Shown: positions 5,667 to 63,664, numbered from the stretch's first letter. The stretch: 64,000 nt of DNA from a bacterium (GCA_963674965.2 CAXXFL010000001.1:1184001-1248000), one strand, 5' to 3'. The notes: generated from the letters alone by a model not told the origin. A program made the numbers and translations.

Positions 5667-5683
5667 GTTGAGAGCCCTTATGG

Positions 5684-8900: not shown

Positions 8901-8946
8901 TTTCCATCCTCTCCATCCGTCGTCCCAGAGGGAGTGGAACCGGCCG

Positions 8947-47781: not shown

Positions 47782-49038
47782 TTGCATCATTTCGAGTACA
47801 AAGACGGAGAGCTTTGCTGTGAGGAAGTTCCCCTGACCCGGATCGCCGAGGAATTCGGCACTCCCTGCTACGTGTATTCCAAGGCAACCCTCGTCCGTCA
47901 TTTCAAGGCTTTTGACGATCCCTTCGCCGACCTTCCCCACCTGACCTGCTTTTCGGTCAAGGCCTGCTCGAACCTGGCCATCCTCCGGCTTTTCGGGGAC
48001 CTGGGCGGGGGCTTCGACGTGGTCAGCGGCGGCGAGCTGTTCCGAGTGATCAAGGCCGGGTGCGACCCGAGGAAGGTGGCTTACTCCGGCGTGGGCAAGA
48101 CGGCTGACGAGATAGCTTTCGCCTTGGACTCGGACGTATTGATGTTCAACGTGGAGAGCGAGGCCGAGCTAGAGGCCATCGCGAGGATCGCCGAGAAGAA
48201 GGGCAAGAAGGCCCGCCTGTCGGTCCGGGTAAATCCCGAGGTCGACCCCAAAACCCATCCTTACATAGCCACGGGACTTCGGGAGGCCAAGTTCGGGGTC
48301 ATTACCGAGGACGCCCGCAAGATTTACATGAGGACCCTGGAGATGGAATGGGTCGAGGCCATCGGCGTGGACTGCCACATCGGCAGTCAGCTCACCCAGA
48401 CGGCGCCCTTTATCGAGGCCCTTGCCAGATTGATCAATCTTACCTCGTCCCTCCGGGATGACGGATTGGAAATAAAGTACCTCGACCTGGGAGGGGGCCT
48501 GGGCATAACCTATCGCGACGAGAGGCCGCCCCTGCCCAAGGAATACGCCGTCGAGATCGCGGGCGCCATCAAGGAGCTGGGCGTGACCCTTATCCTCGAG
48601 CCCGGCAGGGTGATAGTGGGCAACGCGGCCGTGCTTCTTACCCGGGCGCTTTACGAGAAAAAGACGCCGGATAAAAAGTTCATCATCGTCGACGCGGCCA
48701 TGAACGACTGCATTCGGCCTTCCCTTTACGGCGCGTATCATGACATAAAGCCGGTAAAGGAGGCGGCCGAGGGGAAGGAGGAGGCCGTGGACATGGTGGG
48801 ACCCATTTGCGAGTCCACCGACTTCCTGGCCAAGAACCGGCTCATGCCTCCCTTTAGAGCGGGCGACCTCGCGGCGGTCATGAGCGCCGGGGCTTATTGC
48901 GCGGCCATGGCCAGCAATTACAACTCCAGGCCCCGGGCGGCCGAGGTCCTGGTCTCGGGCGACAAGGCCATGCTCATACGGAAGAGGGAAACTTACGACG
49001 ACGTCATCAGGGGGGAGTCCGTCCCGGACGCCCTATAA
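47782..49038 (+). CDS. lysA: diaminopimelate decarboxylase
   Basis: GTPCYVYS, SVKACSN, FDVVSGGEL, HIGSQ, DLGGG, EPGR, RPSLY, GPICES, GAY..MASNYNSRPR. Confidence 0.96.
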   Translation: MHHFEYKDGELCCEEVPLTRIAEEFGTPCYVYSKATLVRHFKAFDDPFADLPHLTCFSVKACSNLAILRLFGDLGGGFDVVSGGELFRVIKAGCDPRKVAYSGVGKTADEIAFALDSDVLMFNVESEAELEAIARIAEKKGKKARLSVRVNPEVDPKTHPYIATGLREAKFGVITEDARKIYMRTLEMEWVEAIGVDCHIGSQLTQTAPFIEALARLINLTSSLRDDGLEIKYLDLGGGLGITYRDERPPLPKEYAVEIAGAIKELGVTLILEPGRVIVGNAAVLLTRALYEKKTPDKKFIIVDAAMNDCIRPSLYGAYHDIKPVKEAAEGKEEAVDMVGPICESTDFLAKNRLMPPFRAGDLAAVMSAGAYCAAMASNYNSRPRAAEVLVSGDKAMLIRKRETYDDVIRGESVPDAL

Positions 49039-49068: not shown

Positions 49069-49890
49069 ATGGAACTTGAGTTCACTAAAATGCACGGCCT
49101 CGGCAACGACATGGTCGTGCTCGATTCACTGAGTAGCGGCTTTATACCGACCTCCGAGCAGGCCCGGGCCATGCTGCAAAGGCGGTATGGAATCGGCGGA
49201 GACCAGATACTCGTGCTCCTTCCCTCGGAGTCGGCGGACTTCAAGATGCTGATCTTCAACAACGACGGCTCCGAGGTCGAGATGTGCGGGAACGGCGTCC
49301 GCTGCCTTGCCAGGTACATCCACGACCGGGGCATTTCGGACAAGACCCCCCTCGAGATAGAGACCCTGGCCGGGACCATCAAGCCGGAGCTGGTGGGCGA
49401 CCTGGTCAAGGTGGATATGGGCAAACCCATATTCGAGGCCTCGAGGGTCCCGGTCAAAGGAGAGGGAATACTCCGGGGGGTCGAGATGGAGGCGGGCGGC
49501 CGGGTCTTCAAGATGAGCGCGGTCAGCATGGGCAATCCTCACTGCGTGATCGAGACCGACGACGTCGAGGCCGTGCCCCTCTCGGAAATAGGTCCCGTCA
49601 TCGAGAGGCATCCCTGGTTTCCGAACCGGACCAACGTCGAGTTCGTCCAGGTAGTATCGCCCAGGCGGATGATCGTCCGGGTGTGGGAAAGAGGCGCGGG
49701 CATTACCCTGGCCTGCGGCACCGGGGCCTGCGGCGCGGCCGTAGCCATGATGGACCTGGGACGCGTTGGCCGCGAGGTCACCGCGGCCCTTCCGGGAGGA
49801 GACCTGGAAATAAAATGGGACGAGAAGACCGGCCACGTCTTCATGACCGGTCCCGCCCGGGAGGTATACCGGGGCACGATCAAGCTCTAG
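49069..49890 (+). CDS. dapF: diaminopimelate epimerase
   Basis: FTKMHGLGND, NNDGSEVEMCGNGVRC, SMGNPHCV, NVEF, VWERGAGITLACGTGAC. Confidence 0.97.
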   Translation: MELEFTKMHGLGNDMVVLDSLSSGFIPTSEQARAMLQRRYGIGGDQILVLLPSESADFKMLIFNNDGSEVEMCGNGVRCLARYIHDRGISDKTPLEIETLAGTIKPELVGDLVKVDMGKPIFEASRVPVKGEGILRGVEMEAGGRVFKMSAVSMGNPHCVIETDDVEAVPLSEIGPVIERHPWFPNRTNVEFVQVVSPRRMIVRVWERGAGITLACGTGACGAAVAMMDLGRVGREVTAALPGGDLEIKWDEKTGHVFMTGPAREVYRGTIKL

Positions 49891-50144
49891 CCGGGGCGGC
49901 CGTTGCCGCCGACGCCCGGCTCTGATATATTTCACGGAACGCCGGTAATTATTCGTTTGGTGGACGATTTTTATGAGGCCGGCCGGATGGTCCGCCGTCA
50001 AGACGTTTGAAGGCGCAATTCTAAGGCCCGCGGCTTGCGCCGCCCACATAGCGGAGTTGTGTGGATACGCCGCGGCCGGTTGGCGCGCGGGGCGGGGGCC
50101 CCGGCGATCATTGAAACTAAAGCTTGAAAGGAGCGAGGAGACAC

Positions 50145-51977
50145 ATGGTTGAATTCAGCGAGAAAGTCTTGCCCGGGACCTTTTACAACCGCGCCCGGAA
50201 ACATCCCGAGAAGGTCTACCTTATTTCACGGTTCGATGAAACGGGAAAGAAAACGCCCGACGTCCTCCATAACGTGACCTGGGCGCAAACCGAGCGGATC
50301 GTGAGAGACTTCATCAAGGGCCTTAAAGTCATGGGCTTTAAGGACCTCGACCGTCTCGCCGTTTTCGGGCCCAACCGTCCGCGCTGGATTTACTCTTGCT
50401 TCTCGGCCATCGGCCTTCGGGGGACCCACGTTCCCATATATCCTACCAGCAAGGAGGACGACGTCTGGTGGATACTCCAGGACTCTGGCGCCAAGTTCGT
50501 GGTCTGCGGGAGCATGGAGCACGTGGAGAAGGCCCTGGCCGTCAAGGACAGGGTCGAGACCCTGGAGGGGATCATTTTGATGGACCCGCCGCCCGGCGAC
50601 CAGGACGACCGCGTGATCGGCTTCGACCAGGTGCTGCAAAAGGGACGGGACAGCGGCATCTCCGACGACGATCTGGACAAGGCCATCGAGACCATCGGGG
50701 AAGAGGACCTGGCGGCCATTATCTACACCTCCGGCACCACGGGGCGGCCAAAGGGGGTCATGCTCACCCACAAGAACTTCATCGCCCAAAGGCGTCTCGA
50801 GCATAACTTCGACTTCACCGACGAGGAGGTCTTCCTGGCCCATCTTCCCATGTGCCACTCCTTTGGTTTTTCCTCAGACCTTTTAAACGGGACCAACATC
50901 GGCGCGACCCTTTTCGTGGCCGACAGCCTCGAGACCATGGAGATGCGCAAAAACCTGGCCGACTCGAGGCCCACCTTCATGGCCTCCGTGCCCCGGTTGT
51001 GGGAGAAGTTCTACATCCAGATCGGGCAGACCATCAAGGAGCAGTCGCCCTTCAAGCAAAAGCTGGTCGGCTGGGCCATCGAGGTCGGACAGGAGGCCTA
51101 CAAGACCAAGACCGACGGAAAGCCCCTGTCCCCGGTCCTTCAGCTCAAGGCAAAGTTCGCCTCCCGCATTTTCGGCAAGATCAAGGCCAGGGTCGGCCTG
51201 GACCGGCTCAAATACAGCGCCACCGGCGGCGGTCCCATTAACGCCAAGCTGATATACTTCTTCGGCGGCATGGGGATCGAGCTCTTCCAGGGGTTCGGCC
51301 TGACCGAGACGGCCCCCATCATCTACGCCAACCATCCCAAGGCCAACAAGATCGGGACCGTGGGCAAGCCCCTGGACAACATGGAGGGAAAGATAGCCGA
51401 GGACGGCGAAATACTGGTTCGCGGCCCGCAGATCATGACGGGCTATTACAACAACCCCGAGGCCACCAGGGAAGTGCTCGACGCCGAAGGGTGGTTCTAT
51501 ACAGGCGACATCGGGGAGATCGACTCGGAGGGTTTCCTTAGAATAACCGACAGGAAAAAGGAACTCATCATCACCTCGGGCGGAAAGAACATCGCCCCCC
51601 AGCCCATCGAGAACGAGTTCAACACCGATCCCTACATCGAGATGATCTGCGCCATCGGCGACGGCCGGAAGTTCATATCCGCCCTGGTGGTTCCCGAGTT
51701 CGACAACGTCAAGGCCTGGCTGAAGGAAAAGACCGGCGAGACCATTGACGACAACCAAAAGCTCATCGAGAACGAGCAGGTCAAGGAGCTTATCCAGGAG
51801 AGGATCGGCGAGGCCAACAAGCGCCTGGCCAAGTACGAGCAGATCAAAAAGTACGTGATCCTTTCCCAGCCCTTCGCCGAGGAGTCGGGAGAGCTTACGC
51901 CGTCACAGAAAAAGAAGCGCCGCGTAATCCACCAGAAGTACGAGAGCGAGATCGAGGGCATGTACCCCTCGGACTAA
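50145..51977 (+). CDS. long-chain fatty acid--CoA ligase (AMP-dependent synthetase, FadD15-like)
   Basis: IIYTSGTTGRPKGVMLTH, SVPRLWEK, GFGLTET, GEILVRGP, GWFYTGDIG, ITDRKKELIITSGGKNIAP; ATG 50145 with GAGGAG RBS. Confidence 0.93.
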   Translation: MVEFSEKVLPGTFYNRARKHPEKVYLISRFDETGKKTPDVLHNVTWAQTERIVRDFIKGLKVMGFKDLDRLAVFGPNRPRWIYSCFSAIGLRGTHVPIYPTSKEDDVWWILQDSGAKFVVCGSMEHVEKALAVKDRVETLEGIILMDPPPGDQDDRVIGFDQVLQKGRDSGISDDDLDKAIETIGEEDLAAIIYTSGTTGRPKGVMLTHKNFIAQRRLEHNFDFTDEEVFLAHLPMCHSFGFSSDLLNGTNIGATLFVADSLETMEMRKNLADSRPTFMASVPRLWEKFYIQIGQTIKEQSPFKQKLVGWAIEVGQEAYKTKTDGKPLSPVLQLKAKFASRIFGKIKARVGLDRLKYSATGGGPINAKLIYFFGGMGIELFQGFGLTETAPIIYANHPKANKIGTVGKPLDNMEGKIAEDGEILVRGPQIMTGYYNNPEATREVLDAEGWFYTGDIGEIDSEGFLRITDRKKELIITSGGKNIAPQPIENEFNTDPYIEMICAIGDGRKFISALVVPEFDNVKAWLKEKTGETIDDNQKLIENEQVKELIQERIGEANKRLAKYEQIKKYVILSQPFAEESGELTPSQKKKRRVIHQKYESEIEGMYPSD

Positions 51978-51986
51978 GGGGAAAAA

Positions 51987-52745
51987 TTGATACCTATCGA
52001 TCTTGCCGGCAAGGCCGCCGTCGTTACCGGCGGCGGCCGCGGCATTGGAAGGGCCGTTGCCCTCGAGCTGGCCAGGGCCGGCGCCGACGTTCTGGTCACG
52101 GCCCGCACGGCCGGACAGCTCGAGGAAACGGCGGGCCTCATCGAGGACCTGGGCCGGAGGGCCCTGATCCTGGCCGGCGACGCTTCCCTCCCGGAAACGG
52201 CCGAGAAGGCGGTGAAAACCGCGGCCGGGAACATCGGCGGACCCCACCTCCTGGTAAACAACGCGGGCATGGAGATCGTGAAAAGCCTCCTGGACTCGAG
52301 CCCCGAGGACTTCGACCTCATCATGAACGTCAACGTCAAGAGCATGATGCTCTTCACCCGGGCGGCCGGAAAATACATGATCGAGAACGGCGGCGGCAAG
52401 ATCGTCAACATGGCCTCGACCGGCGGCTTTATCGCGGGCCCCAACCAGTCCCTTTACCACGCCAGCAAGGCCGCCTGCGCCCATTTCACCAAGGCCATGG
52501 CCATCGAGTGGGCCAGGTACAAGATCAACGTCAACGCCGTTGCTCCCGGCTGGGTGGACACGGAGTTGATTTCCTTCATCACCGGCAATGAGGACGCCTT
52601 CAAGAAATACATCAAGGGCGTGCCCATGCGGCGGGTGGCCGATCCCCGGGAGGTTGCCTTTGCGGTGGCCTTTCTCTGCTCCGACCTCGCCTCCTACATG
52701 ACCGGCTCCGTTGTCGTGGTCGACGGCGGCCTGATGATTCCCTGA
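51987..52745 (+). CDS. SDR family NAD(P)-dependent oxidoreductase (FabG/KduD-like)
   Basis: TGGGRGIG, LVNNAG, catalytic YHASK, VNAVAPG, YMTG..VVVDGG. Confidence 0.93.
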   Translation: MIPIDLAGKAAVVTGGGRGIGRAVALELARAGADVLVTARTAGQLEETAGLIEDLGRRALILAGDASLPETAEKAVKTAAGNIGGPHLLVNNAGMEIVKSLLDSSPEDFDLIMNVNVKSMMLFTRAAGKYMIENGGGKIVNMASTGGFIAGPNQSLYHASKAACAHFTKAMAIEWARYKINVNAVAPGWVDTELISFITGNEDAFKKYIKGVPMRRVADPREVAFAVAFLCSDLASYMTGSVVVVDGGLMIP

Positions 52746-52793
52746 GTACTTGGCGCTATAATAAATAATTGGCTATTGCCATGGAGGTGCGAA

Positions 52794-53693
52794 ATGAAAC
52801 GCTCGTGGAAGCTCGCGTTGGCTATAATTATTGTGGGGCTGCTGCTGGGAGGAGTCAGGCTTCTGGCCCTTGGCCCGGCCGACTTTCCCGACGGCCAGGT
52901 AGTGTTCGAGCCCTATAAGATCGAGCCCGGCGTCGTTCTGCCCGGCGAGGTATGTAAATACCGGTTTTTCTGGAAGGGCAGTCTTCTGACCCAGGACGTT
53001 TTCATTCCCGCGGCGGAGGGGGTCGTCAAGGTGGAAAAACATCCCACCAGGCCCGGGTGGCAGTGCCACCGCGCCGACGGCGTGACCATCCCCCCGGCGT
53101 CCCTTATCTTCAAGGCCGACGACGGGGTCTTCGAGTGCATGGACGCCGCGACTTGGAAGGCGGACCAGTACTCGATTCGCATCCGGGAATCCTTCGATTA
53201 TTACGACCTGTCCATGACCTTCGACCAGGAGAAGAAAACCCTCGACCGGGTCAGAACAAGGCGAAAAGGTGAGACCCGACGGACCTTCGATTTCACGCAG
53301 GGTTACGGACCCGTCGGCGCGGTGGCCTTGTCCCGAAGCATGGCCTGGGAGGTGGGCGACGAGCGCAAGTTCGAGGTCATGGACGGAAACGAGCGCTGGC
53401 TCATCGTTTTAAAGTGCGAGGCGGAGGAGGACGTTACCGTTCCCGCGGGTACTTTCCATGCCCTTCGCTTCCAGCCCAGCCTTTTCCTCATGCCCAAAAA
53501 CCCGTCCTTCGAGACCAAGCGCTATTGGGAAAAAGAAAGGGAAAGAGAGGCCACCACCGACTCGAGAATTAAAACCGCCAAGATATGGTCGCAAAAAGAA
53601 CCGCCCAGGGTGCTGCTCAAGTTTCAAAGCGAGGTTTTTTTCGGCCACGTTTACGGAGAGCTCGTCGAGTACACGCCGGGGACCGCCGAGTGA
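52794..53693 (+). CDS. DUF3108-like exported beta-rich protein
   Basis: N-terminal signal/TM; PGEVCKY..W; EDVTVPAGTF motif; beta-rich C-terminus; GGAGG RBS before ATG 52794. Confidence 0.65.
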   Translation: MKRSWKLALAIIIVGLLLGGVRLLALGPADFPDGQVVFEPYKIEPGVVLPGEVCKYRFFWKGSLLTQDVFIPAAEGVVKVEKHPTRPGWQCHRADGVTIPPASLIFKADDGVFECMDAATWKADQYSIRIRESFDYYDLSMTFDQEKKTLDRVRTRRKGETRRTFDFTQGYGPVGAVALSRSMAWEVGDERKFEVMDGNERWLIVLKCEAEEDVTVPAGTFHALRFQPSLFLMPKNPSFETKRYWEKEREREATTDSRIKTAKIWSQKEPPRVLLKFQSEVFFGHVYGELVEYTPGTAE

Positions 53694-54745
53694 CCGACTA
53701 CGTCATCGAGGACTTCAGGGGCGACGCCGAGGCCCTCGAGCGCATGGCCCACGCGGCCTGGCGCGACGAGTACGCCGTGGACTCCTACCCCAACCTTTAC
53801 AAGCCCGACTACCTCGAGTATCTCATGAAGAACGTGGACGACCCCCGCATGGCCATCGCCGCCTACGAGGGGGACGAGCCGGTTGGGTTTATCCTCAACC
53901 TGCCTCGCGTGATGGTCATGGGCGGCAAGGAATACCGGGCGGCCCTTTCCTGCCTCCTGGTGGTGAGGAAGAAGACCTTCCGCCAGGGCCTGGCCCAGGC
54001 CATGATCCAGGAGGGATTGAAAAGGAACAAGGAACTCAACTTCGACTTCACCCTCTTTTACCTCGAGACCGGACACCGCTCGAGCAAGCTCTTTAACAAA
54101 CTCGCCGGCGCGGGAATGCCCATCGCGAGGGTGAAGAGGATGCACGTCATCGCCCGCGTGCTCGATCTCGACAAGCTCCGCTCGAGCGAGAACGTTAAAT
54201 CATACGAGGCGCTGGCCATCAAGCTCCTTGGCGCCCACAATCCTCCCGCCGATCCTGGCGACCCCCGCGTCAGGGAGGCCGGCCCATCCGACGCGCCCGG
54301 GATTCTCGAGCTTCTTAACGCCCACGTGGGCAAGGTAAGGCTGGCCAGGAAGTTCGAACTGGAGGAGATGACAAGGGAGCTTTTCCATCCGCCCATAGCC
54401 AGGACGCTGGTTTACGAGAAGGAAGGCAACATCCGCGGCGTTCTGGCCTACGTGATCGTGGACCACGTGGGAAGGATTCACGCTCCCTGGGCCTGGATCA
54501 ACCACGTGGCCTGGGATGGCCTGAGTCTTTCCGAAAGGGTCCGGCTCGTTAAAAGCTTCCTGGCCCGCGTTTCCTCAGAGGGAGCCACGGGAGTGGTCGA
54601 GTGGTCGAAAAAAGTCTACCCCACTTCCGCCCTTTACGCTTCCCGCTTCGTTCCCTACCCCAGGACCATCGACATGATGGCCTGGCGGTTCATCGACGGG
54701 ATATCCCTGTCCAACGTGCCCGACGTCTACGAGGTCCAGATATAA
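53690..54745 (+). CDS. tandem-GNAT acyltransferase resembling N-myristoyltransferase
   Basis: GNAT motif A LLVVRKKTFRQGLAQAMI; second GNAT half VREAGPSDAPGILELLN; GTG 53690 overlaps upstream stop (GTGA). Confidence 0.7.
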   Translation: MTDYVIEDFRGDAEALERMAHAAWRDEYAVDSYPNLYKPDYLEYLMKNVDDPRMAIAAYEGDEPVGFILNLPRVMVMGGKEYRAALSCLLVVRKKTFRQGLAQAMIQEGLKRNKELNFDFTLFYLETGHRSSKLFNKLAGAGMPIARVKRMHVIARVLDLDKLRSSENVKSYEALAIKLLGAHNPPADPGDPRVREAGPSDAPGILELLNAHVGKVRLARKFELEEMTRELFHPPIARTLVYEKEGNIRGVLAYVIVDHVGRIHAPWAWINHVAWDGLSLSERVRLVKSFLARVSSEGATGVVEWSKKVYPTSALYASRFVPYPRTIDMMAWRFIDGISLSNVPDVYEVQI

Positions 54746-54910: not shown

Positions 54911-56398
54911 ATGACCTACAGGCCAATCAAAAAGGTGATGCTCGTTTTTCCTCCCATGGCCAACACGCGCCTGACGAACAACATCTGCGCCCCGCCCATG
55001 GGCATAGCCTCGCTGGCCGCTTACCTTCGGGAGAACTCGGAGGTCGAGATCAAGGCGCTGGACTCGGTTGTCGAGGGCTTCGAGATAGTGGAGGACCTGG
55101 GCCGCGACGTCGTCAAGATAGGACTGTCCTACGGCGAGATACAAAAGAGGATAAGAGAATTCGGTCCCGACCTTCTGGGCGTGTCCAATATCTTCTCGAG
55201 CCAGTTCCCCTTTACGCGCGAGATCGTAAAACGGGCCAAGGCCGAGGACCCCGACCTCTTCGCCGTTACTGGAGGAACGTACCCTTCCTTTATGCCCGAG
55301 AGGGCCCTCGAGACGACCGAGCTGGACGCGGTAGTGATCGGGGAGGGAGAGCTTCCTCTCAAGTCGATAATCGAAGCGATCAATCAAGGCAAAACGCCCG
55401 AGGGTCTCGCGGCAATCGCGCTCAAGACCGGCGAGGGCCTTTCGGTCAACAAACAAAAGCACATGATCGAGGACCTCGACTCGCTTCCCCTGCCCGCTCG
55501 AGATTTGTTTCCCGTCGAGCGCTATTTCGAGATCAACCTTCCCATGCAGTCCATCAGCCGGGACAGGCGGAACCTGTCGGTGGCCACCTCGAGGGGATGT
55601 CCCTATAAGTGCCAATTTTGTTCCTCCACCATTCACTGGGGACACAAATACAGGACGAGAAGCGTGGAAAAGGTACTGGACGAGCTGGATCATTTAAAAA
55701 GTACATACTCGATCGGGGAGATCAAGTTCGAGGACGACAACCTTTCCTTCGACCAAAAACGGGCCAAGGCCCTCTTCAGGGGCATGATCGAAAGGGGCCT
55801 TACCTTCCATTGGAACACGCCCAACGGGATCGCCGTCAGGCACCTGGACGACGAGATGCTCTCGCTCATGAAAAAGAGCGGCTGCTATGAACTGACCCTG
55901 GCCGTCGAGAGCGGGGACCAGGACGTGCTTCGCGATATTATCCATAAGCCCCTGAAACTCGAGGAGGCAAGGGACGCCGCCAAAAGAATCAAAGACCACG
56001 GCATCGAGACGGCCGGCTACTTCATCATCGGTTTTCCAGGAGAGACTAAAAAGCAGGTGCAAAACACTCTGGATTTCGCCGTGTCCCTCGCCCTGGACCG
56101 GGTCTATATCTTCATGTACACGCCCCTTCCCGGCACTCCGCTGGCAGAGCGGGCCATCGCCGAGGGGCTGGTGAGGGACGACTTCGATTTCGAAAAGGAG
56201 AACAATTATTTCCTGCCCTCGGTCAAGCTCCCGGACCTTTCCTGGGAGGAGATGATCTCCATGCAGCGTCGGGCCTTCTGGAGAAGCAACCTGCGCCTCC
56301 TTTACACCCGGCCCGACCGCTTTATCAGGAAATACGGCTCGACCATTTACAACCATCCCGAGCTGGTCCTCAAGTTTTTCCGCGCCATAAGGCTTTAG
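54911..56398 (+). CDS. B12-binding domain radical SAM protein (paralogue 1)
   Basis: PPMGIASLAAYL, PDLLGVS, GGTYPS, GEGE, LPLPARDL, TSRGCPYKCQFC, EDDN, AVESG, FIIGFPGET, PLPGT. Confidence 0.92.
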   Translation: MTYRPIKKVMLVFPPMANTRLTNNICAPPMGIASLAAYLRENSEVEIKALDSVVEGFEIVEDLGRDVVKIGLSYGEIQKRIREFGPDLLGVSNIFSSQFPFTREIVKRAKAEDPDLFAVTGGTYPSFMPERALETTELDAVVIGEGELPLKSIIEAINQGKTPEGLAAIALKTGEGLSVNKQKHMIEDLDSLPLPARDLFPVERYFEINLPMQSISRDRRNLSVATSRGCPYKCQFCSSTIHWGHKYRTRSVEKVLDELDHLKSTYSIGEIKFEDDNLSFDQKRAKALFRGMIERGLTFHWNTPNGIAVRHLDDEMLSLMKKSGCYELTLAVESGDQDVLRDIIHKPLKLEEARDAAKRIKDHGIETAGYFIIGFPGETKKQVQNTLDFAVSLALDRVYIFMYTPLPGTPLAERAIAEGLVRDDFDFEKENNYFLPSVKLPDLSWEEMISMQRRAFWRSNLRLLYTRPDRFIRKYGSTIYNHPELVLKFFRAIRL

Positions 56399-56410
56399 GG
56401 AGAGACGCCC

Positions 56411-57925
56411 GTGAAGGTCCGGCCCATCGCGCGCGCGCTTTTCATCTATCCTCCCGAGAGGGCGCTCAAGGGCTTTTTCCGCGCCAACGTTCCCCCCCTC
56501 GGGGCCGCTTGCCTGGCCGCCTGGATAGGAGACCGGTGCGAGACCGCCATCCTCGACGCCAAGCTCGAGGGCTATGACAGCGTCTCGGTGGACGGCCCCT
56601 TCGAGGTCTACGGCCTGGGCATGGACGAGATCGAGTCGAGGGTGAGGGCCTTCAAGCCGGACCTGGTCGGCTTAACGTGCCTGGCCTCCTTTAACTGGCC
56701 CGAGGTTAAAAAAATCGCGGCCCTGGTTAAGAGGGTTGGCCCCGATATCCTGGTGGTGGCGGGCGGTACTCACCCGGCCTTTCTTTACGAGCAATGCCTG
56801 GCCGAGGCCCCGGAGATCGATCTGATCGTCCGGGGGGAGGGAGAACTCGCGCTCTCCAAAATTCTTGACGCGGCGACGGCGGGAAAAAACATAGACGTGA
56901 TTCAAGGAATGGCCTTCAGGAAAGAGGACGGGACTGTCCAGGCCAACGGTTTCTCGGAGCCGGTGGAAAGTCTCGACGAGCTGCCATTTCCGGCGCGGCA
57001 TCTTCTTGACATGGACGGTTACTTCGAGACCAGGGCGCCCTTTTCCCGGACCTTCCGCCATAAACGGAACACCAGCATCCAGACCTCGCGCGGCTGCCCT
57101 GCGCACTGCACTTTTTGCTCGTCGGCCAACTTTTGGGGGCACGGCTTCCGGCCTCAGTCTCCCGGCCGGGTGCTGGCGGAAATTGAGCATCTTATCGACC
57201 GCTATGGGATAAGGGAGCTTCAGTTCGTGGACGACAACCTTGTCTTCGATCGCGACCGGGCGGTGAGCATCTTCGAGGGCATGATTGAGAGGGACCTTGG
57301 CCTCGAGTGGTGCATGCCCAACGGGGTGGCCCTGTGGAGGCTCGATCCCGAGCTGATCGCCTTGATGAGGAGGGCGGGCTGCTACAGCATGACCTTGGCC
57401 TTCGAGTCGGGCAACCAGCGGGTGCTGTCGCGCTTGGTAAAGAAGCCCTTGAACCTTAAAAAAGTCCCGCCCCTGATCGAGGAGATGAAGAGGCAGGACG
57501 TCCAGATTCACGCCTTTTTCATTTCCGGCTTTCCCGGCGAGACCAGGGAGGAAATGCTGGACACCTATCGGCTGGCGAAAAGTCTCGATTTAGACGGGGC
57601 CTACTTCTTTATCGCCACCCCCCTTCCGGGCACCGAGCTTTGCCGGACCTGCGAGGACGAGGGTTATATCGACCCGGACCTGGACTTCACCAAGATCGAG
57701 TTCAACAAGGGGCATATCAACACTCCGGACTGGACGGCCGAGGAAGTCGAGCGCCTGGCGGGCTCATTTTATCTTCGATTCATGGTTTCCGTTTTGTCGC
57801 GTCATCCCCTCCGTTTTTTTAAAAACTACGGAGGCGTTATTATAAAGAGGCCGGGATACACTCTCGTTCATTTCCTGGTTTTTATCAAGCGCTCGCTCCT
57901 CAGGCTGTTGGGGCGCGGCGACTGA
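56411..57925 (+). CDS. B12-binding domain radical SAM protein (paralogue 2)
   Basis: PPLGAACLAA, PDLVGLT, GGTHP, GEGE, TSRGCPAHCTFC, VDDN, AFESG, FISGFPGET, PLPGT. Confidence 0.92.
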   Translation: MKVRPIARALFIYPPERALKGFFRANVPPLGAACLAAWIGDRCETAILDAKLEGYDSVSVDGPFEVYGLGMDEIESRVRAFKPDLVGLTCLASFNWPEVKKIAALVKRVGPDILVVAGGTHPAFLYEQCLAEAPEIDLIVRGEGELALSKILDAATAGKNIDVIQGMAFRKEDGTVQANGFSEPVESLDELPFPARHLLDMDGYFETRAPFSRTFRHKRNTSIQTSRGCPAHCTFCSSANFWGHGFRPQSPGRVLAEIEHLIDRYGIRELQFVDDNLVFDRDRAVSIFEGMIERDLGLEWCMPNGVALWRLDPELIALMRRAGCYSMTLAFESGNQRVLSRLVKKPLNLKKVPPLIEEMKRQDVQIHAFFISGFPGETREEMLDTYRLAKSLDLDGAYFFIATPLPGTELCRTCEDEGYIDPDLDFTKIEFNKGHINTPDWTAEEVERLAGSFYLRFMVSVLSRHPLRFFKNYGGVIIKRPGYTLVHFLVFIKRSLLRLLGRGD

Positions 57926-57941
57926 GACCGGAGGTTTTTTT

Positions 57942-59417
57942 ATGCGCCCCATCCAGCGGGTGATGCTGATATATCCGCCCGTTACTTTCGCTCCTCAGAG
58001 TATGAAGCAATGCCATCTTCCGCTTGGTCTTGCTTATCTCGCGGGCATGATCCGCGGAAAAGTCGAGCTCGAGGTACTTGACGCGGCGGCCGAGGGCTGG
58101 GAGCGCGAGGAGCCCGCCGGAGAGAAGCTTCTTCGCTACGGCCTTACCTTTCCCGAGATCGAGTCCCGGATTCGCGCCTTCAAGCCCGACATGGTGGGCA
58201 TGAGCTGCATCTTCTCGAGCCAGTTTAGAAACGTGGTCGAGATCGCCAGGATCGTCAAAAAAATCGATCCTTCCACGCTTACCATCACCGGCGGGACCCA
58301 TCCGACCTTTCTGCCCGAGTACTCGATGGCCCGGTGCCCCGAGCTCGACTTCATCGTTCGAGGGGAGGGAGAGTTCGCGCTCGACGAGTTGATCGATTCC
58401 TTGCGCAAGGGGGGAGACCCGGCCCATATAAAAGGGCTCGTTTATCGGGATGGGGACCGCGTTAAAATCAATCCCGACCGGGAGCCTTACCCGAACCTGG
58501 ACGATATTCCCTTTCCCGCCCGCGACCTGTTTCCCATTCAAAGATACTCCGACATAGGCGTGCCCATGGGGACCGTTTTCAGGCACAAGCCTTACATGAA
58601 CCTCATCACCTCGAGGGGATGCCCCTTCCACTGCACCTTTTGCTCTTCCACTAACTTCTGGGGCAACAACTACAGGACGCGCTCTCCCGAGAACGTGCTG
58701 GCGGAAATGGAAACCCTCTACCGGGACATGGGCGTGCGAGAGTTCAAGTTCTTCGACGACAACCTGACGACCAACCGGAAGAGGGCCATGGCCATCTTCC
58801 AGGGCATGATCGACCGTGGCCTCAAGGTTACCTGGAACACGCCCAACGGCATCCACGTGGTGACCCTCGACGAGGAGCTTCTTGACCTGATGAAAAGAAG
58901 CGGCTGTTTCGAGCTGACCCTGGCGGTCGAGAGCGGAAACGCCGACGTGTTACGGGACATAATCCGCAAGCCCACCAAGCTCCACCACGTTGAGGAGGCC
59001 TCGGCCTTGATTAAAAAGAAGGGCATCGCGACCAACGGCTTTTTCATCATCGGCTTCCCGGGCGAGACCAAGGACCAAATAAGAAACACCCTGGACTTCT
59101 CGCTCAAGATCGACCTCGACCGCATGTCGTTCTTCATCTACAACCCGCTTCCCGGCACGCAATTATTCGACGTCTGCGTTGAGAAGGGCTATATCACTCC
59201 CGACCAGATGGCCGAGGACGCGGACTACTTCGAGGGCCGCTTCGACACGCCCGAGTGGACCCGGTCCGAGCTTCACAAGCTGCGGCGGAACTGGTTCTGG
59301 AAATATAACGCGGGCCTTCTGTTCCGTTCTCCCGCCAGGTTCTTCAAGAACTATCTGCCCCTGGTGGCCCGGCCGCGGCAGACCTGGGAGATCGTCAAGC
59401 GGGTCGCGAGGACCTGA
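57942..59417 (+). CDS. B12-binding domain radical SAM protein (paralogue 3)
   Basis: PLGLAYLAG, PDMVGMS, GGTHPT, GEGE, TSRGCPFHCTFC, FDDN, AVESG, FIIGFPGET, PLPGT. Confidence 0.92.
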   Translation: MRPIQRVMLIYPPVTFAPQSMKQCHLPLGLAYLAGMIRGKVELEVLDAAAEGWEREEPAGEKLLRYGLTFPEIESRIRAFKPDMVGMSCIFSSQFRNVVEIARIVKKIDPSTLTITGGTHPTFLPEYSMARCPELDFIVRGEGEFALDELIDSLRKGGDPAHIKGLVYRDGDRVKINPDREPYPNLDDIPFPARDLFPIQRYSDIGVPMGTVFRHKPYMNLITSRGCPFHCTFCSSTNFWGNNYRTRSPENVLAEMETLYRDMGVREFKFFDDNLTTNRKRAMAIFQGMIDRGLKVTWNTPNGIHVVTLDEELLDLMKRSGCFELTLAVESGNADVLRDIIRKPTKLHHVEEASALIKKKGIATNGFFIIGFPGETKDQIRNTLDFSLKIDLDRMSFFIYNPLPGTQLFDVCVEKGYITPDQMAEDADYFEGRFDTPEWTRSELHKLRRNWFWKYNAGLLFRSPARFFKNYLPLVARPRQTWEIVKRVART

Positions 59418-60076
59418 TGGTATCGGGAGAGACGCGGAACCTGGAACGAATCGACTGGCCGGAGGTGGCGGGGAAGTTCTCGGGCCTGGTCCGGGACGAG
59501 ACGCGCTCGAAGTATTTTCCGGCCAACCCGCTCAGGCAACTCATCATCAGGAATTTTCTCCGGCGCCTGGGAGACGTTCTCGAGCCGGCCCGTTGGCGGG
59601 ACCTTCTGGACGTGGGCTGCGGCGAGGGCTTCGTGGATTATTATCTTGGACTTCGCTTCCCGGGAAGTATCATAACGGGTCTGGACGTTGACCCGTCGGC
59701 GCTCGAGGCGGCCAGGGGGATCAATCCCGGCTTTACCTATATCGAGCAAAAAGGCGAGCAACTGCCCTTCGAGGATAGATCGTTCGACGCGGTCATCTGC
59801 ATCGAGGTGCTCGAGCACCTTCTGGATTACGGGTCGGTCATGAAGGAGCTGCATAGGACGGCAAAGGAGGTCGTGGTAATCAGCGTGCCGGCTTTTCCAT
59901 TTTATCAACTCACCAATTTCATGATTGGCAAAAACCTTGGAAGGATGGGCGAGCATCCCGGCCACGTGACGCAGTTCGGTCCCTGGAAATTAAAAAGGGA
60001 GATGGAAAAGGTTTTCGGGGACTCTTCTCACGTGTCCTTTTCGTACCCGTGGCTTTTAGGAACGGCGGAAAAATAA
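59417..60076 (+). CDS. class I SAM-dependent methyltransferase
   Basis: LLDVGCGEG, GLD, LPFEDRSFDAVICIEVLEHL, ISVP, HPGHV; 1-nt overlap with upstream stop. Confidence 0.9.
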   Translation: MVSGETRNLERIDWPEVAGKFSGLVRDETRSKYFPANPLRQLIIRNFLRRLGDVLEPARWRDLLDVGCGEGFVDYYLGLRFPGSIITGLDVDPSALEAARGINPGFTYIEQKGEQLPFEDRSFDAVICIEVLEHLLDYGSVMKELHRTAKEVVVISVPAFPFYQLTNFMIGKNLGRMGEHPGHVTQFGPWKLKREMEKVFGDSSHVSFSYPWLLGTAEK

Positions 60077-60118
60077 CGGAAATCTTGCCCTTCGCCGGGA
60101 AGGGAAAAAAAGCTTGTA

Positions 60119-60145
60119 AAAGGGCGGCGGAGTTTGCCGCCCTTT
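60119..60145. terminator. bidirectional terminator between methyltransferase and spoVG
   Basis: AAAGGGCGGC-GGAGTTT-GCCGCCCTTT inverted repeat between convergent genes. Confidence 0.7.
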
Positions 60146-60165
60146 GCGAGCGATGAGGAAGTATA

Positions 60166-60456
60166 TTAGAGGTTTACCGCCTCCTTATGGCTGGGAAAAC
60201 CCTTTTCCAACTCCTCGTTATACTTGTCCAGGACCGTGGTTTCAATAAGCTGTCTTGTCTCCGGATTCAATGGATGGGCAACGTCCCGGAACATGCCGTT
60301 CTTTCCCTTTTTATTGGGCATGGCCACGAAAAGACCCTTGGTGCCGCGAATAACCTTAAGACCCCTGATCATAAAACAGTCGTCAATGGTGATATTTACG
60401 TAGGCTCTAAGCTTGTTCTCGTCAACCGGTACTACGGCCACGTCGGTGATCTTCAT
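60166..60456 (-). CDS. spoVG: SpoVG family nucleic-acid-binding regulator
   Basis: MKITDV, LRAYVNITIDDCF.I.GLKVI.G.KGLFVAMP, FRDVAHPLN; GGGAGG RBS. Confidence 0.95.
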   Translation of the reverse strand: MKITDVAVVPVDENKLRAYVNITIDDCFMIRGLKVIRGTKGLFVAMPNKKGKNGMFRDVAHPLNPETRQLIETTVLDKYNEELEKGFPSHKEAVNL

Positions 60457-60499
60457 GTCTAAGTCCTCCCTTGAAAGTGCTCAATCGAGTAAGCTATTA

Positions 60500-60682
60500 T
60501 TATTTACTTTCCCCTGACGGGGTAACTCCACAACTCCTGAGCGCGGTTTCGGCGGCTTCCCTCATTTCCTTGCGCCGTCCCATTGCTTCCTTTTGGATTT
60601 TTTCCTGACAACCAATGCAGATATATCCGAGCATCGGCTCCTTTTTACCGCACAGGATGCAGGTTCTGAACTTCTCTTCCAT
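60500..60682 (-). CDS. small CxxC-CxxC zinc-finger protein upstream of spoVG
   Basis: CILC..ICIGC followed by charged helix; GGGGGAG RBS; 43 nt from spoVG start. Confidence 0.65.
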   Translation of the reverse strand: MEEKFRTCILCGKKEPMLGYICIGCQEKIQKEAMGRRKEMREAAETALRSCGVTPSGESK

Positions 60683-60913
60683 TTAGGGTTACTCCCCCTT
60701 GCCCATCTGGTGTCCCTCGCGGCACATCATTGACGAATCTTGATATTAATCGCCCTCAGAAAAAATTTAAGCGGCTTTTGCCGGACCCGACTCACGAGGC
60801 GGGGAGGCAAAAGCCAGATAACCTTGAAAAATATTAATATTCCGTGCTTTAGTAACAATTATATTTATCGTTTTATCCATATTATTAATCCCACAACCCA
60901 TGCGGATTTAATT

Positions 60914-60929
60914 AGCACATAGCGTACCA
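60914..60929 (-). promoter_or_regulatory. sigma-54 (-24/-12) promoter
   Basis: minus strand TGGTACGCTATGTGCT: GG and GC spaced as in TGGCACG-N4-TTGC; within AT-rich 490-bp intergenic region. Confidence 0.65.
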
Positions 60930-61169
60930 AAATCAGGAGCTTAAATAGTCATTTTTTTTCAAATTGTAACTATCCATTTATTAACGAGTAAATATTACAT
61001 TTTTGGTACGGCATTAAAGACGCCTTATTCATTAATTAGTGCCACTATTCCAGAACAGTAGTGTCCGGGACCCAATGATGGACGTTTTTTGCGCACTATT
61101 TATAAAAGGACCCATATATTTGCGACCAGCCTAAGTAGAATGGACCAATCCAGGAAACCTTCTCGAGCG

Positions 61170-61820
61170 TTATTTCTTCCACAACCTGACCATGGACCGA
61201 GCGGCTTCTTCTGGATTGGAACTGGCTGAAATAGAAGATATTACGGCGGCGCATGCACATCCTGTGCCTCTTATCTCCAATAAATTATCCGCCCCTATGC
61301 CCCCTATGGCGACAACGGGGATACTTACCGATTTAACTACATGAATTAAATTGTCTATTCCCTGAGGAATGGAGACGTTGTTTTTGGTCGAGGTCGTATA
61401 CATGGAGCCAAATCCGACATAATCAGCATCATCAAATTCTGCTTTTTTTGCTTCCTCAACGGAATGAGTGGATATTCCTAAAAGGAATGAATTGCCCGAT
61501 ATTGATCGAGCGCGGGAGGCGGGCAGGTCGTCCTGACCAAGATGTGCGCCGTGAGCGCCCGAAGCCAGGGCAACATCCAGACGGTCGTTGACAATAAATG
61601 CCGCGCCCCTTTTGTCACAAAGAGTTGCCATTTCGCGAGCGAGATTTACCATCTCACCCGCCGGCAGTTTTTTGGCCCGCAACTGCACAACCGTCACGCC
61701 CGCCTCGAGCGTCTGGCGCAAAAGCTTTAAAGGCTCTTTGCCCGCCCCCACCTCGGGATCGATAATGGCGTAAACTCCCCTAACTTTTTTTCGGCAAAAC
61801 TCACGCCTATCGATGGCCAT
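61170..61820 (-). CDS. thiE: thiamine-phosphate synthase
   Basis: GVTVVQLRAK, FIVNDRLDVA, GAHLGQDD, GISTHS, ADYVGFG..Y.TSTK, PVVAIGGI. Confidence 0.95.
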   Translation of the reverse strand: MAIDRREFCRKKVRGVYAIIDPEVGAGKEPLKLLRQTLEAGVTVVQLRAKKLPAGEMVNLAREMATLCDKRGAAFIVNDRLDVALASGAHGAHLGQDDLPASRARSISGNSFLLGISTHSVEEAKKAEFDDADYVGFGSMYTTSTKNNVSIPQGIDNLIHVVKSVSIPVVAIGGIGADNLLEIRGTGCACAAVISSISASSNPEEAARSMVRLWKK

Positions 61821-61949
61821 TTTGTCCTCTCCCCTTTTCGTCCGATTTACTCTCGATAATTTCTTCCCAAGTCGCCGCGCGGTAGAGGGCGTCGTGTCCC
61901 ATGGCTTTCAATGCCCTGATTCTTTTCACCGGCCTCATTCTAGCCTCGA

Positions 61950-62011
61950 TGGGGGAAACGGCGCTCCAAATGGCGTAAACGGGTATTTCTCACTGGTCCT
62001 CTCGAACCCCC
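61950..62011 (-). ncRNA. degenerate TPP-riboswitch-like element upstream of thiE
   Basis: minus strand GGGG-GTTC-GAGA-GGAC-CAG-TGAGAAATACCCGT; 3' half only loosely resembles canonical ACCTGAT..TAATGCCAGCG. Confidence 0.35.
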
Positions 62012-62143
62012 TTTCCCTTAATAGCTCGGGAAAACCAGCCATCGAGAAGGCTATGGACATGGTGTAAGAATTGGAAAGGGACGCCCTTAATTATTATGGA
62101 CGCATCCATGGCCAATACGGCCAAGGCGGGCCCTTTTTCCAAT

Positions 62144-63664
62144 TCAGGCCCCGGCCGACCCCAGCTTCTGGGCGATCGCCTCCGCAACCCTTACCGAGAT
62201 GGCCCAGATGGTCTCCTGGGGATTAACTCCAAGGGACGTGGGGAACACGCTTCCGTCGGCGATATACAGATTCTGGACGTCGTGGAACTCTCCCGTCGGG
62301 CCCACCACGCTCTTCTTGGGATTTACGCCCATCCTGCACGTGCCCTGGGGATGGAAGGCCATAAGTATCCAGTCGGAAGGCTTGGTCTTCTCGCGAGATA
62401 TGCGGTCCAGGTCGGACATGCTCAGGACCTCGGGCACGGCGAAGTTGCCGTTGATGACCTTCCTGGCGCCGGCCGAAAAAAGCACCCGGTCGCAGATAAT
62501 CATGGCCTTGTAAAGGGTCTCGGCGTCCTCGTCCCTGAGATGGAAAGACATGGCCGGCTCGCCGTCGCCGTCGGCCCTGACCCTTCCCTGTCCTTTCTCG
62601 CTGATCATGATCCCGAGGCTGGCCATATGGCGGTATTGCTTGCACACGTCCCACAGGTCGGGCCCAATGCCTGCCAGTCCCGGCAGCTGGGAGGCAGGTC
62701 CCGTAAAGGTCGCCTCCATCATTATGCCCTGCTCGACGTAGTCGTCGATGTACATGTTCTGGCATACCCCGAGGTGGGAGTTGATCTCCTCCTCGAATAT
62801 GCCGATGGTGCGGGCGCACAGGTGGAGCTTGAGACCTTTTCCCACTTTGCCGCTTTTATTTCCAATCTTGTTTTTTAGCAAAAAGGCCGGAGTGCAAAGC
62901 GACCCCATGGATAGGACCACCACCTTGGCCGAAACGTCAACGTTGAACCGGTACTTGCCCGAGCGACGGTCGATAACCATGCCGTGAACGCCCGTCACCC
63001 CGTCCTTTTCTCCCGTCAGTATCTGGGCCTTCACGTCGCAGTAAAACTTGGCGCCAAGCTTGTCGGCGTCGGGGATGATCTTGACCACCATCGATTCCTT
63101 GGCCCCCTCGGTGCAGCCGTAGGCGCAGTTGCCGCAGCCGCGGCACTTGTCGTTCACGTTTCTCTTGAGGGGACGGGGATGGAGGCCCAGCTTGCGGGCG
63201 CCCTCGGAAATAATCTCGCCTCCGCGTCCCATTACCTCCGGCCTTACCTCCTGGACGCTCATGTCCTTCTCGACCTTGTCGTAATAGGGCGCCATGTCGG
63301 CCGGCCCGAAACCCTCGAGACCCATCTTGACCCATTCGTTCAACACCGAGTCGGGGGCCCTGAAGCAGGTACCCATGTTGACCGTGGTCGTGCCGCCCAG
63401 GCAGCGGCCGGTGGGCACTATGATCGAGGGAATGCCGGTGGTGGCGTCGAGACCCATGTTCCTGGTCATCTTGAAGAAGCCGTCCTTGACCTTGCCGGTG
63501 AAGTCCTCGGTGAAATAAGCCCCGCCCTCCTCGAGCACCACCACGGAAAGTCCCTTGCCGGCCAACTCCCGCGCCACCGTGGCCCCGCCGGCGCCGCTAC
63601 CTATTATACAAACGTCAACGTCCTCACGGACGGCCGAGTCGAGGTCTTTGCCTTCTATAATCAT
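62144..63664 (-). CDS. GMC family oxidoreductase
   Basis: IIGSGAGG, VLEEG, GRCLGGTT.VN, CRGCGNCAYGC..GAK, VGKGL.LH, HPQGTCRMG, NLYIADGSVFPTSLGVNPQETI. Confidence 0.93.
   Translation of the reverse strand: MIIEGKDLDSAVREDVDVCIIGSGAGGATVARELAGKGLSVVVLEEGGAYFTEDFTGKVKDGFFKMTRNMGLDATTGIPSIIVPTGRCLGGTTTVNMGTCFRAPDSVLNEWVKMGLEGFGPADMAPYYDKVEKDMSVQEVRPEVMGRGGEIISEGARKLGLHPRPLKRNVNDKCRGCGNCAYGCTEGAKESMVVKIIPDADKLGAKFYCDVKAQILTGEKDGVTGVHGMVIDRRSGKYRFNVDVSAKVVVLSMGSLCTPAFLLKNKIGNKSGKVGKGLKLHLCARTIGIFEEEINSHLGVCQNMYIDDYVEQGIMMEATFTGPASQLPGLAGIGPDLWDVCKQYRHMASLGIMISEKGQGRVRADGDGEPAMSFHLRDEDAETLYKAMIICDRVLFSAGARKVINGNFAVPEVLSMSDLDRISREKTKPSDWILMAFHPQGTCRMGVNPKKSVVGPTGEFHDVQNLYIADGSVFPTSLGVNPQETIWAISVRVAEAIAQKLGSAGA

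Follow-up and report, generated by a model that had tools for sequence, protein, structure and literature searches.

Introduction

N-myristoyltransferase (NMT, glycylpeptide N-tetradecanoyltransferase) attaches a fatty chain to protein ends in eukaryotes, and its N-terminal extension serves in ribosome targeting. N-myristoylation is usually presented as a eukaryotic invention. The sections drawn on here of a recent paper on HisAT/NAT16 (PMC12219266, Nat Commun 2025) state that NMTs had previously been reported as limited to eukaryotes, and that NMT-type double-GNAT structures were 'surprisingly' detected in archaea and bacteria in the AlphaFold DB. The NMT type is defined there as a double-GNAT with a C-terminus ending at the active site as in NMT1, and those sections assign it no function. 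In the literature that we searched, no paper characterising a prokaryotic NMT relative was found. We have analysed a gene of this type in a 64,000-nucleotide stretch of bacterial DNA (GCA_963674965.2 CAXXFL010000001.1:1184001-1248000; hereafter the window, whose positions serve as coordinates throughout). A first-pass annotation of the same DNA had likened the product to NMT and had treated NMT as eukaryotic, a view made outdated by the prokaryotic NMT-type structures described in those sections of the 2025 paper. The existence of prokaryotic NMT-type proteins is already in print, and what the gene described here adds to this known type of enzyme is a further, compact form from bacteria.

Results

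An intact double-GNAT gene with many bacterial relatives

The first-pass annotation had placed a double-GNAT protein of about 351 residues at 53690-54745, and an intact open reading frame (ORF) of exactly 351 residues and a stop codon was found there. The GTG at which it starts lies within a 4-nucleotide overlap (GTGA) with the preceding DUF3108 gene, whose TGA stop makes up the rest of the overlap, and an alternative, longer start is offered by an ATG at 53585. Since the starts of all 44 aligned homologues fall on or close to the GTG at 53690, the 351 residues were taken as the product. The source genome (6.5 Mb in 7 contigs, 97.6% complete) carries a single copy, and the same gene is the sole NMT_C match in the whole genome.

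Single-sequence comparisons of the window protein gave mixed signals. The first half matched Acetyltransf_1 (residues 27-137, E 1.3e-6) and Acetyltransf_9 (E 8.2e-6) in Pfam, and the second half matched only NMT_C (residues 187-257, E 0.038), which at 14.1 bits against a cut-off of 27.9 is sub-threshold. The Pfam NMT model (PF01233) did not match at E ≤ 0.1, no NCBIfam model matched, and a search of the PDB returned only noise, with Rab6 as the best match (E 0.47). Given that noise, a profile was needed to establish any relationship to PDB entries.

A word-index search recovered 203 proteins at E ≤ 1e-3, nearly all of 349-364 residues; the few that are named are titled GNAT acetyltransferase or hypothetical protein and come from metagenome-assembled genomes (MAGs) of Aminicenantes, Saccharicenans and Acidobacteria. 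An exhaustive HMMER search of 1.84 billion cluster representatives returned 248 at E ≤ 1e-3 and 112 at E ≤ 1e-10, mostly of about 350 residues and with identities down to about 20%. No fused longer form was found at E ≤ 1e-5 among 5,190 candidates, which is weak evidence. Two alignments were used in what follows: A1, with 44 homologues 42-71% identical to the window protein, and A2, an 88-sequence alignment of the superfamily. Every A1 member matched Acetyltransf_9, whereas NMT_C matched at E ≤ 0.1 in 28 of the 44 (best E 2.2e-5) and NMT in four (best E 0.013). The relatives form a prokaryotic NMT-type double-GNAT superfamily of about 350 residues, linked to NMT by profile, that includes the window protein.

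Profile searches and the predicted fold lead to N-myristoyltransferase

Profiles made from both alignments were run against 177,635 distinct PDB sequences. With A1 the best 44 matches were all NMTs (best E 1.8e-8), and other families appeared only at E values of at least 0.15; the aligned stretches were collinear, with profile positions 59-112 on Plasmodium vivax NMT 104-158 and 179-258 on 211-291. With A2 the best 44 were again all NMTs, reaching E 1.3e-24 to human NMT1, and Eis came next at 3.6e-7. Here profile positions 10-118 fell on human NMT1 167-276 and positions 149-262 on 291-405. Within these ranges the profile segment 'fdlwspeylewql' aligned with human NMT1 and 'lsCllvtrkellrkGlakalikE' with P. 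vivax NMT, 'fWvrvLdaekv' lay opposite NMT 'YWHRSLNPRKL', and 'lReyrpeDld..lln.y...l..vf..eel...l....v..tlvye' lay opposite NMT 'MRLMKKKDVEGVHKLLGSYLEQFNLYAVFTKEEIAHWFLP..VIYTYVNE'.

A transitive link points the same way. One superfamily relative (P0152), a direct phmmer match of the window protein (E 1.2e-22, 28% identity), passes the Pfam NMT model with 42.9 bits against a cut-off of 25 (E 5.9e-11) and matches NMT_C at E 0.0033. A search with this relative for NMTs of eukaryotes or giant viruses returned nine proteins, none of them titled NMT.

A template-free AlphaFold2 model of the window protein, built from A1, has a mean predicted local distance difference test score (pLDDT) of 92.5 and a predicted template-modelling score of 0.89, and consists of two lobes only. 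The rows listed among the first 50 Foldseek ranks were all NMTs, with E values down to 1.3e-23 and template-modelling scores of 0.77-0.81. VIA-align, run against 48,161 representative chains, placed yeast NMT at Z 33.1 (root-mean-square deviation (rmsd) 2.5 Å over 328 residues) and C. parvum NMT at Z 32.0. After a gap came MAB_4324 (Z 23.6), other tandem GNATs (19-21), Eis (15.8-19.0), HisAT (17.0), MshD (16.2) and FemA/FemX (13.7-14.6). All 50 rows listed in a second-look alignment were NMT entries, at Z 32.7-34.5 and rmsd 2.3-2.7 Å over 314-328 residues. Taken with the position of the coenzyme A (CoA) loop, the model shows a double-GNAT fold whose predicted acyl-CoA site lies in the N-terminal lobe.

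The first-pass annotation had picked out collinear NMT blocks by eye, and every one of them was reproduced in the A1 and A2 alignments, far beyond chance by profile (E 1.8e-8 and 1.3e-24) and by structure (Foldseek E 1.3e-23; VIA Z 33-34.5). It had also considered that the best structural matches might be of the Eis or FemX type; NMTs proved best, at Z 33-34.5 against about 19 for Eis and about 14 for FemA/X. By three independent lines, namely profiles, the transitive link through P0152 and the fold, the window protein is a real but distant relative of NMT.

Conserved residues and the C-terminal chain end

A1 has 35 invariant columns. They include the CoA pyrophosphate loop residues R98, G100 and A102, in a motif (R98-x-G100-x-A102) present in the N-terminal lobe only, and further C88, V91, E126-G128-H129-S131, R156, W269, Y323-R325, W332 and E348; V346 and Q350 are conserved at 90% or above. 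Many of the invariant residues are acidic (E27, E126, E167, E173, D201, E230 and E348). W24 is one of only three near-invariant columns in A2. With the human NMT1 numbering offset taken between the 6fz5 and 1rxt rows of the A2 search, the profile pairs W24 with Y180, E27 with D183, C88-L89-L90 with N246-F247-L248 and R156 with R299. We take the NMT stretch opposite residues 24-45 to be the substrate lid (Ab loop), and the N-F-L of NMT opposite C88-L89-L90 is presumably the oxyanion-hole bulge.

All 44 A1 sequences stop at the same column with a tail of the form ..V-Y-E-V-Q-I. The short hydrophobic C-terminus EVQI of the first-pass annotation is indeed present. Of the 117 close homologues with a length of 330 residues or more, 114 have the pattern [FYA][ED]x[QHV][IVLM] at exactly this position, the exceptions being P0102, P0105 and P0119. 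Among distant full-length representatives, 64 of 101 carry a terminal Arg (WR, FR or LR). The chain end is thus fixed across the superfamily and the tail residues are subfamily-specific. One large, distant branch (P0186, P0170, P0210 and others) ends in ..L-L-W-R or ..D-F-R and not in ..E-V-Q-I; a conserved terminal Arg beside the carboxylate that is presumed to be catalytic may be the sign of another class of acceptor.

In the second-look structural alignment, residue 351 of the model pairs with the last residue of every full-length NMT chain listed (human 496, Aspergillus 492, Candida 451, yeast 455, Leishmania 421 and Plasmodium 410). For a human deltaC2 truncation (6skj) the alignment ends at model residue 349 and chain residue 494, so the tails are in register residue by residue. 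The first-pass annotation had called for a check of the C-terminus against the active site; in the structural alignment I351 of the model superposes on the catalytic C-terminal residue of NMT. Structural pairing and the conserved tail thus give strong indirect support for placing I351, in the predicted structure, at that position.

Taxonomic distribution

In the phylum of the source genome, 8 of 13 representative genomes gave a match; among relatives that carry a name, the closest comes from 'Deltaproteobacteria bacterium RBG_13_61_14' and is 70% identical. Sampling around an Aminicenantes-titled MAG (G013) found the gene in 2 of 201 genomes of its phylum and in 32 of 151 of its class, several of the latter copies being broken or partial. 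The gene seems dispensable in the lineages that hold broken copies.

A quick maximum-likelihood tree of 82 sequences, from which 14 of the 17 loci L081-L097 were omitted (12 as duplicates, plus L083 and L087, which were unmatched to kept rows), contains two clades with starred support. The clade of 11 rows comprises seven of the eight own-phylum sequences together with L005-L008. In the clade of 71 rows most titles read Aminicenantes or 'uncultured Eubacteriales', and a single own-phylum sequence (L015) is nested there. One genome of the same order as the source (G012) has two copies, C68:32984-34036 and C2:9138-10184 (L093 and L096), 70% and 41% identical to the window protein; the second lies on a long branch together with L030. 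As leads only, look-alike clusters in the ESM Atlas came most often from Myxococcota, Pseudomonadota, Acidobacteriota, Verrucomicrobiota, Planctomycetota and Nitrospirota, and in a giant-virus cluster there 92% of members carry Pfam NMT.

Gene neighbourhood

Table 1. Features of the window and of the NMT-type protein that it encodes
Feature	Position	Strand	Basis
lysA	47782-49038	+	Family scans
dapF	49069-49890	+	Family scans
FadD-like AMP-forming acyl-CoA ligase	50124-51977	+	Pfam, NCBIfam
Short-chain dehydrogenase/reductase (SDR)	51987-52745	+	Pfam, NCBIfam
DUF3108 protein with N-terminal hydrophobic segment	52776-53693	+	Pfam DUF3108, E 7.5e-15
NMT-type double-GNAT gene	53690-54745	+	ORF and translation; 351 residues, stop at 54743-54745
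N-terminal GNAT lobe, residues ~1-170, predicted acyl-CoA-binding and catalytic	53690-54199	+	Pfam Acetyltransf_1 and Acetyltransf_9; aligns to human NMT1 167-276; model strands E5-E157
Residues 24-45 (W24 RDE27Y28..S32.P34N35.Y37.P39..)	53759-53824	+	Invariant or near-invariant columns; profile alignment to human NMT1
Residues 86-102 (LSCLLVVRKKTFRQGLA)	53945-53995	+	Strand with predicted beta-bulge/oxyanion position C88-L89-L90, then CoA pyrophosphate loop R98-x-G100-x-A102
Residues 153-160 (VIARVLDL)	54146-54169	+	Aligned to human NMT1 Y296-W-H298-R299-S-L-N; R156 pairs with R299
C-terminal GNAT-like lobe, residues ~190-351, without CoA-loop motif, predicted acceptor site	54257-54742	+	Sub-threshold NMT_C; aligns to human NMT1 291-405
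C-terminal tail V346-Y-E348-V-Q350-I351; I351 main-chain carboxylate, predicted catalytic base	54725-54742	+	Column conservation, tail counts, structural pairing
Three B12-binding radical-SAM paralogues (495, 504 and 491 residues), after a 166-nt gap	54911-59417	+	Pfam, NCBIfam
Class I SAM (S-adenosylmethionine) methyltransferase, start overlapping the last radical-SAM stop	59417-60076	+	Pfam, NCBIfam

The NMT-type gene is the last of a same-strand string with the acyl-CoA ligase, SDR and DUF3108 genes (Table 1), separated by gaps of 10 and 31 nucleotides and an overlap of 4, and it is probably co-transcribed with them in this genome. Two sequencing runs of a single study, of DNA or unknown type, were listed as containing the stretch, and no RNA run was among them. 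The best NCBIfam model for the ligase is the FadD11 fatty acid-CoA ligase (354.8 bits, well below the cut-off of 950). The 166-nucleotide gap before the radical-SAM genes holds a promoter-like site, in a scan that was not above chance (2 sites against 2.3 expected), and terminator-like sites were likewise not above chance (15 against 12.5). Within NCBIfam the radical-SAM genes themselves score highest with the Sden_1168 P-methyltransferase family, whose cut-off of 575 bits is far above the 281-334 bits that they reach.

The arrangement was compared with 80 related loci from species-representative genomes, against which the ten proteins of the window gene string, the NMT-type protein included, were run by tblastn. 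No ligase, radical-SAM or methyltransferase gene was adjacent in any of them; the only ligase match was 25% identical and lay 4.6 kb off (L014), and a few unlinked SDR matches had 27-34% identity. The ligase-SDR-radical-SAM-methyltransferase string was also absent from nine other loci of the phylum of the source genome, same-family genomes included. All-against-all clustering of 2,297 flanking ORFs, in which the top clusters were shadow ORFs inside the NMT-type gene itself, gave no neighbour family in more than 12 of 81 loci. Directly upstream, 71 loci had most often YbaK-like tRNA_edit (8), Peptidase_M28 (6), Peptidase_S9 (5), Peptidase_M19 (4) and Prok-JAB (4) genes, and directly downstream, 79 loci had GH116-like (6), PEPCK (5), GH127 (5) and PrsW (5) genes. 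The suggestion in the first-pass annotation that acyl groups are supplied by the nearby acyl-CoA ligase did not hold up as a general feature, since the ligase is not convincingly adjacent in the 80 related or nine own-phylum loci and no ligase family is in the top 25 of either immediate neighbour. The ligase-SDR-DUF3108 arrangement is local and not a conserved pathway. Being single-copy, with no commonly recurring neighbour family and no fused forms found, the NMT-type gene behaves as a stand-alone gene.

DUF3108 was considered as a general partner and set aside, being adjacent in only one other genome (L004, the same as L085) among the loci compared. That locus (4820-9053) has the order lysA-dapF-DUF3108-NMT-type, found nowhere else among the 80, without ligase or SDR; because neither lies between dapF and DUF3108 there, the ligase-SDR pair looks like a local two-gene insertion or loss (window 49890-52776). 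In a clade at 54-57% identity the NMT-type gene is directly abutted by an SDR gene other than the one in the window (L005 and L006). In L006 (27-2288, +) it encodes a 754-residue protein in which a C-terminal SDR domain follows about 470 unannotated residues, overlapping the NMT-type start by 4 nucleotides; in L005 its place is taken by a plain 284-residue SDR.

Ten further ORFs scanned at 40-49 and 62-64 kb were of housekeeping type (TsaD, KsgA, Fpg, a Mur-type ligase, LysA, DapF and others). A sphingolipid-type pathway found no backing in this set, since no aminotransferase-type, pyridoxal phosphate-dependent condensing enzyme was present among these ten, the search being limited to them and not extended to the rest of the genome. 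The segment 60001-62000 has a G+C content of 0.477, compared with about 0.59 on both sides. It contains a 96-residue ORF at 60166-60456 (-) that is SpoVG-like by eye only and a 216-residue ORF at 61170-61820 that is thiamine-phosphate synthase-like by eye only. A cluster for a ribosomally synthesised and post-translationally modified peptide was also considered, and no candidate precursor stood out by eye among ORFs of at least 30 residues at 60000-62200; no Rfam family was found at 59800-62300.

Discussion

Together these data support a model where the window protein is probably a cytoplasmic, stand-alone N-acyltransferase of the NMT type, with acyl-CoA as donor and the carboxylate at its own C-terminus as base, and belongs to a wide, mostly bacterial superfamily sharing ancestry with eukaryotic NMT. 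The N-terminal GNAT lobe would bind acyl-CoA via the R98-x-G100-x-A102 loop, and the C88-L90 bulge would polarise the thioester. The C-terminal GNAT-like lobe is predicted not to bind CoA and would instead form the acceptor site or groove. The conserved chain end ..Y-E-V-Q-I351 would fold back into the active site, where the free carboxylate of I351 could deprotonate the primary amine of the acceptor, and the amine would then attack the thioester directly in a ternary complex. Since many invariant residues are acidic, a cationic acceptor is suggested, most likely a cationic primary amine, and we lean towards either the N-terminus of a peptide or protein or an amino-acid-like small molecule. 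Given that the Tyr/His pair of NMT is absent, a specificity differing from the eukaryotic glycine rule (Gly-x-x-x-Ser/Thr) is argued for. As for the acyl chain, a length of C8 or more is a tentative proposal that we rate at slightly less than an even chance; the NMT-like scaffold speaks for a longer chain, as does the local ligase, and the generic acetyltransferase signatures and an accessory, decaying distribution speak for acetyl.

Several observations weigh against this assignment. The window protein fails both Pfam NMT cut-offs (NMT_C at 14.1 against 27.9 bits; NMT with no match at E ≤ 0.1), and its strongest Pfam matches are generic acetyltransferase models. It has V153 and A155 where the alignment puts Y296 and H298 of human NMT1, residues that presumably serve in recognition of the N-terminal glycine peptide, so a glycine-peptide acceptor cannot be assumed. 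A common fold, moreover, does not fix substrate or acyl donor. The confidence of the model drops at the end of the tail, from a mean pLDDT of 86 over residues 341-350 to 63 at residue 351. Some relatives are broken, with an in-frame TGA (G244:C14:2969-4147) or TAA (G320:C45:105280-106345), or are fragments (G003:C276:1746-2002 and G348:C15:41450-41749), and the broken or fragmentary set includes copies with only their two ends left; sequencing or assembly error is a possible cause. Such patchiness and breakage fit an accessory enzyme that can be dispensed with, for instance one that acetylates small molecules. The peptidase and YbaK-like neighbours say little about the acceptor, their counts having no background rate.

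An enzyme that transfers acetyl or another short acyl group from CoA onto a cationic aminoglycoside, polyamine, amino acid or thiol precursor, as a small-molecule or xenobiotic N-acetyltransferase on an NMT-type scaffold (compare Eis, MshD and HisAT/NAT16), is a possible though rather unlikely reading. Eis, like NMT, brings a C-terminal carboxylate to its active site. The best Pfam models are those that such an enzyme would match, Acetyltransf_1 and the Eis-type N-terminal domain Acetyltransf_9, the latter throughout A1; the invariant acidic residues fit a cationic ligand, and the patchy distribution with broken copies is that of an accessory gene. HisAT, also a double-GNAT, prefers short acyl chains according to the sections of its description drawn on here (PMC12219266). 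On the other hand, the fold match to NMT stands about 10 Z units above that to any acetyltransferase-type tandem GNAT (Eis about 19, HisAT 17.0, MshD 16.2), the profile favours NMT over Eis by 17 orders of magnitude, and in this genome a long-chain-type acyl-CoA ligase belongs to the same tight string as the gene. If that string were a pathway, the FadD-like ligase would make an acyl-CoA that the NMT-type enzyme transfers to a peptide, protein or aminolipid, and the product would be tailored or carried by the SDR and DUF3108 proteins, possibly with the help of the radical-SAM enzymes and the methyltransferase. The single strand and tight spacing of the four genes, the FadD11 model as best match for the ligase (though under its cut-off), the SDR abutting the NMT-type gene in the 54-57% clade and a fold compatible with a long acyl chain speak for such a scheme. 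We nevertheless consider it improbable, because the string partners are not adjacent in the 80 related and nine own-phylum loci, DUF3108 lies beside the gene in just one other genome, where ligase and SDR are missing, a promoter-like site (from a scan not above chance) occupies the gap before the radical-SAM genes, and SDRs are so common that chance adjacency is likely. The ligase link may hold in this genome, but it is not a property of the NMT-type family.

At the opposite end, a true protein N-myristoyltransferase would move C14 from myristoyl-CoA to an N-terminal glycine after methionine removal. The window protein has the fold, lobe order and chain end of NMT with collinear motifs in both lobes, and a superfamily relative (P0152) passes Pfam NMT, but the failed cut-offs, the replacement of the Tyr/His pair, the lack of anything N-terminal of NMT1 residue 153, the identity of only 13-16%, a patchy gene that is dispensable in its lineages and the lack of any report of such a bacterial activity in the literature searched make this very unlikely. 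We regard as close to negligible the possibility of a transferase that depends on aminoacyl-tRNA, like FemABX and L/F-transferase, enzymes that have a double-GNAT fold as well. Of 71 loci, 8 have a gene for a YbaK-like aminoacyl-tRNA editing domain immediately upstream, and the general fold is common to FemA/FemX (Z 13.7-14.6), yet this is a minority of loci, the fold match falls about 19 Z units below that of NMT, the R-x-G-x-A CoA loop is invariant and no FemAB-type model is matched at E ≤ 0.1.

The preferred reading remains an NMT-type N-acyltransferase with its own specificity. The window supplies a concrete, intact and conserved bacterial member, with a high-confidence model, a defined tail, mapped invariant residues and a taxonomic range, and therefore makes the enzymology directly testable, with regard to acyl-CoA, amine and the chain end as base. 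If the enzyme does lipidate peptides or proteins, it would represent a new bacterial route of protein lipidation and bear on the rise of NMT. In its most far-reaching form, which we hold to be a long shot, this would be a bacterial N-terminal fatty-acylation system that carries medium or long acyl chains from acyl-CoA to peptide or protein N-termini by NMT-like carboxylate chemistry, and the prokaryotic stock from which eukaryotic NMT was recruited and extended. If small-molecule acetylation is instead the case, the NMT scaffold and its C-terminal-carboxylate chemistry would predate their use in protein lipidation. Function should also not be read from gene order in this one genome.

Comparison with known systems

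Members of the FemABX group match in fold at Z 13.7-14.6, compared with 33 for NMT, and no FemAB-type Pfam model matched the window protein at E ≤ 0.1; the CoA loop is invariant in the window family. Eis and Eis2 (PDB 3sxn and 9mva), which are aminoglycoside and protein acetyltransferases, share the Acetyltransf_9 N-terminal lobe and a tandem GNAT arrangement with an active N-terminal lobe. Unlike the window protein, which has two lobes and 351 residues, Eis runs to about 400 residues and includes an SCP2-like domain as its third, and its match is much weaker in both fold (Z 15.8-19.0, rmsd 5.9-6.9 Å) and profile (E 3.6e-7 compared with 1.3e-24 for NMT). The closest solved structure that is not an NMT is the bacterial tandem-repeat GNAT MAB_4324 of Mycobacterium abscessus (PDB 7q3a, 340 residues), with Z 23.6 and rmsd 3.3 Å over 294 aligned residues. 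It lies about 10 Z units below NMT, its alignment ends at model residue 334 so that the tail is unmatched, and it was neither matched with A1 nor among the best 60 of 180 matches with A2.

With NMT itself (EC 2.3.1.97; PF01233 and PF02799; yeast Nmt1p 2p6e and human NMT1 5o9s) the window protein shares two GNAT lobes in the same order, collinear blocks in both lobes, a CoA loop in the N-terminal lobe and a structurally equivalent chain end. The two differ in that the window protein is only 13-16% identical, has a canonical R-x-G-x-A loop aligned with R-S-K-R-L-A of NMT, has C88 where NMT has Asn before the bulge, and ends in YEVQI after 351 residues; its gene is bacterial, patchy and dispensable. 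Model residue 1 pairs with residue 153 of human NMT1, and the homologues start at the same point, so the window protein has neither the N-terminal extension nor the opening part of the catalytic core. The window protein is accordingly filed as an NMT-type member of the prokaryotic superfamily and not as an NMT. As far as structural alignment shows, it fits the definition of prokaryotic NMT-type double-GNATs given in the sections drawn on of the 2025 paper (PMC12219266).

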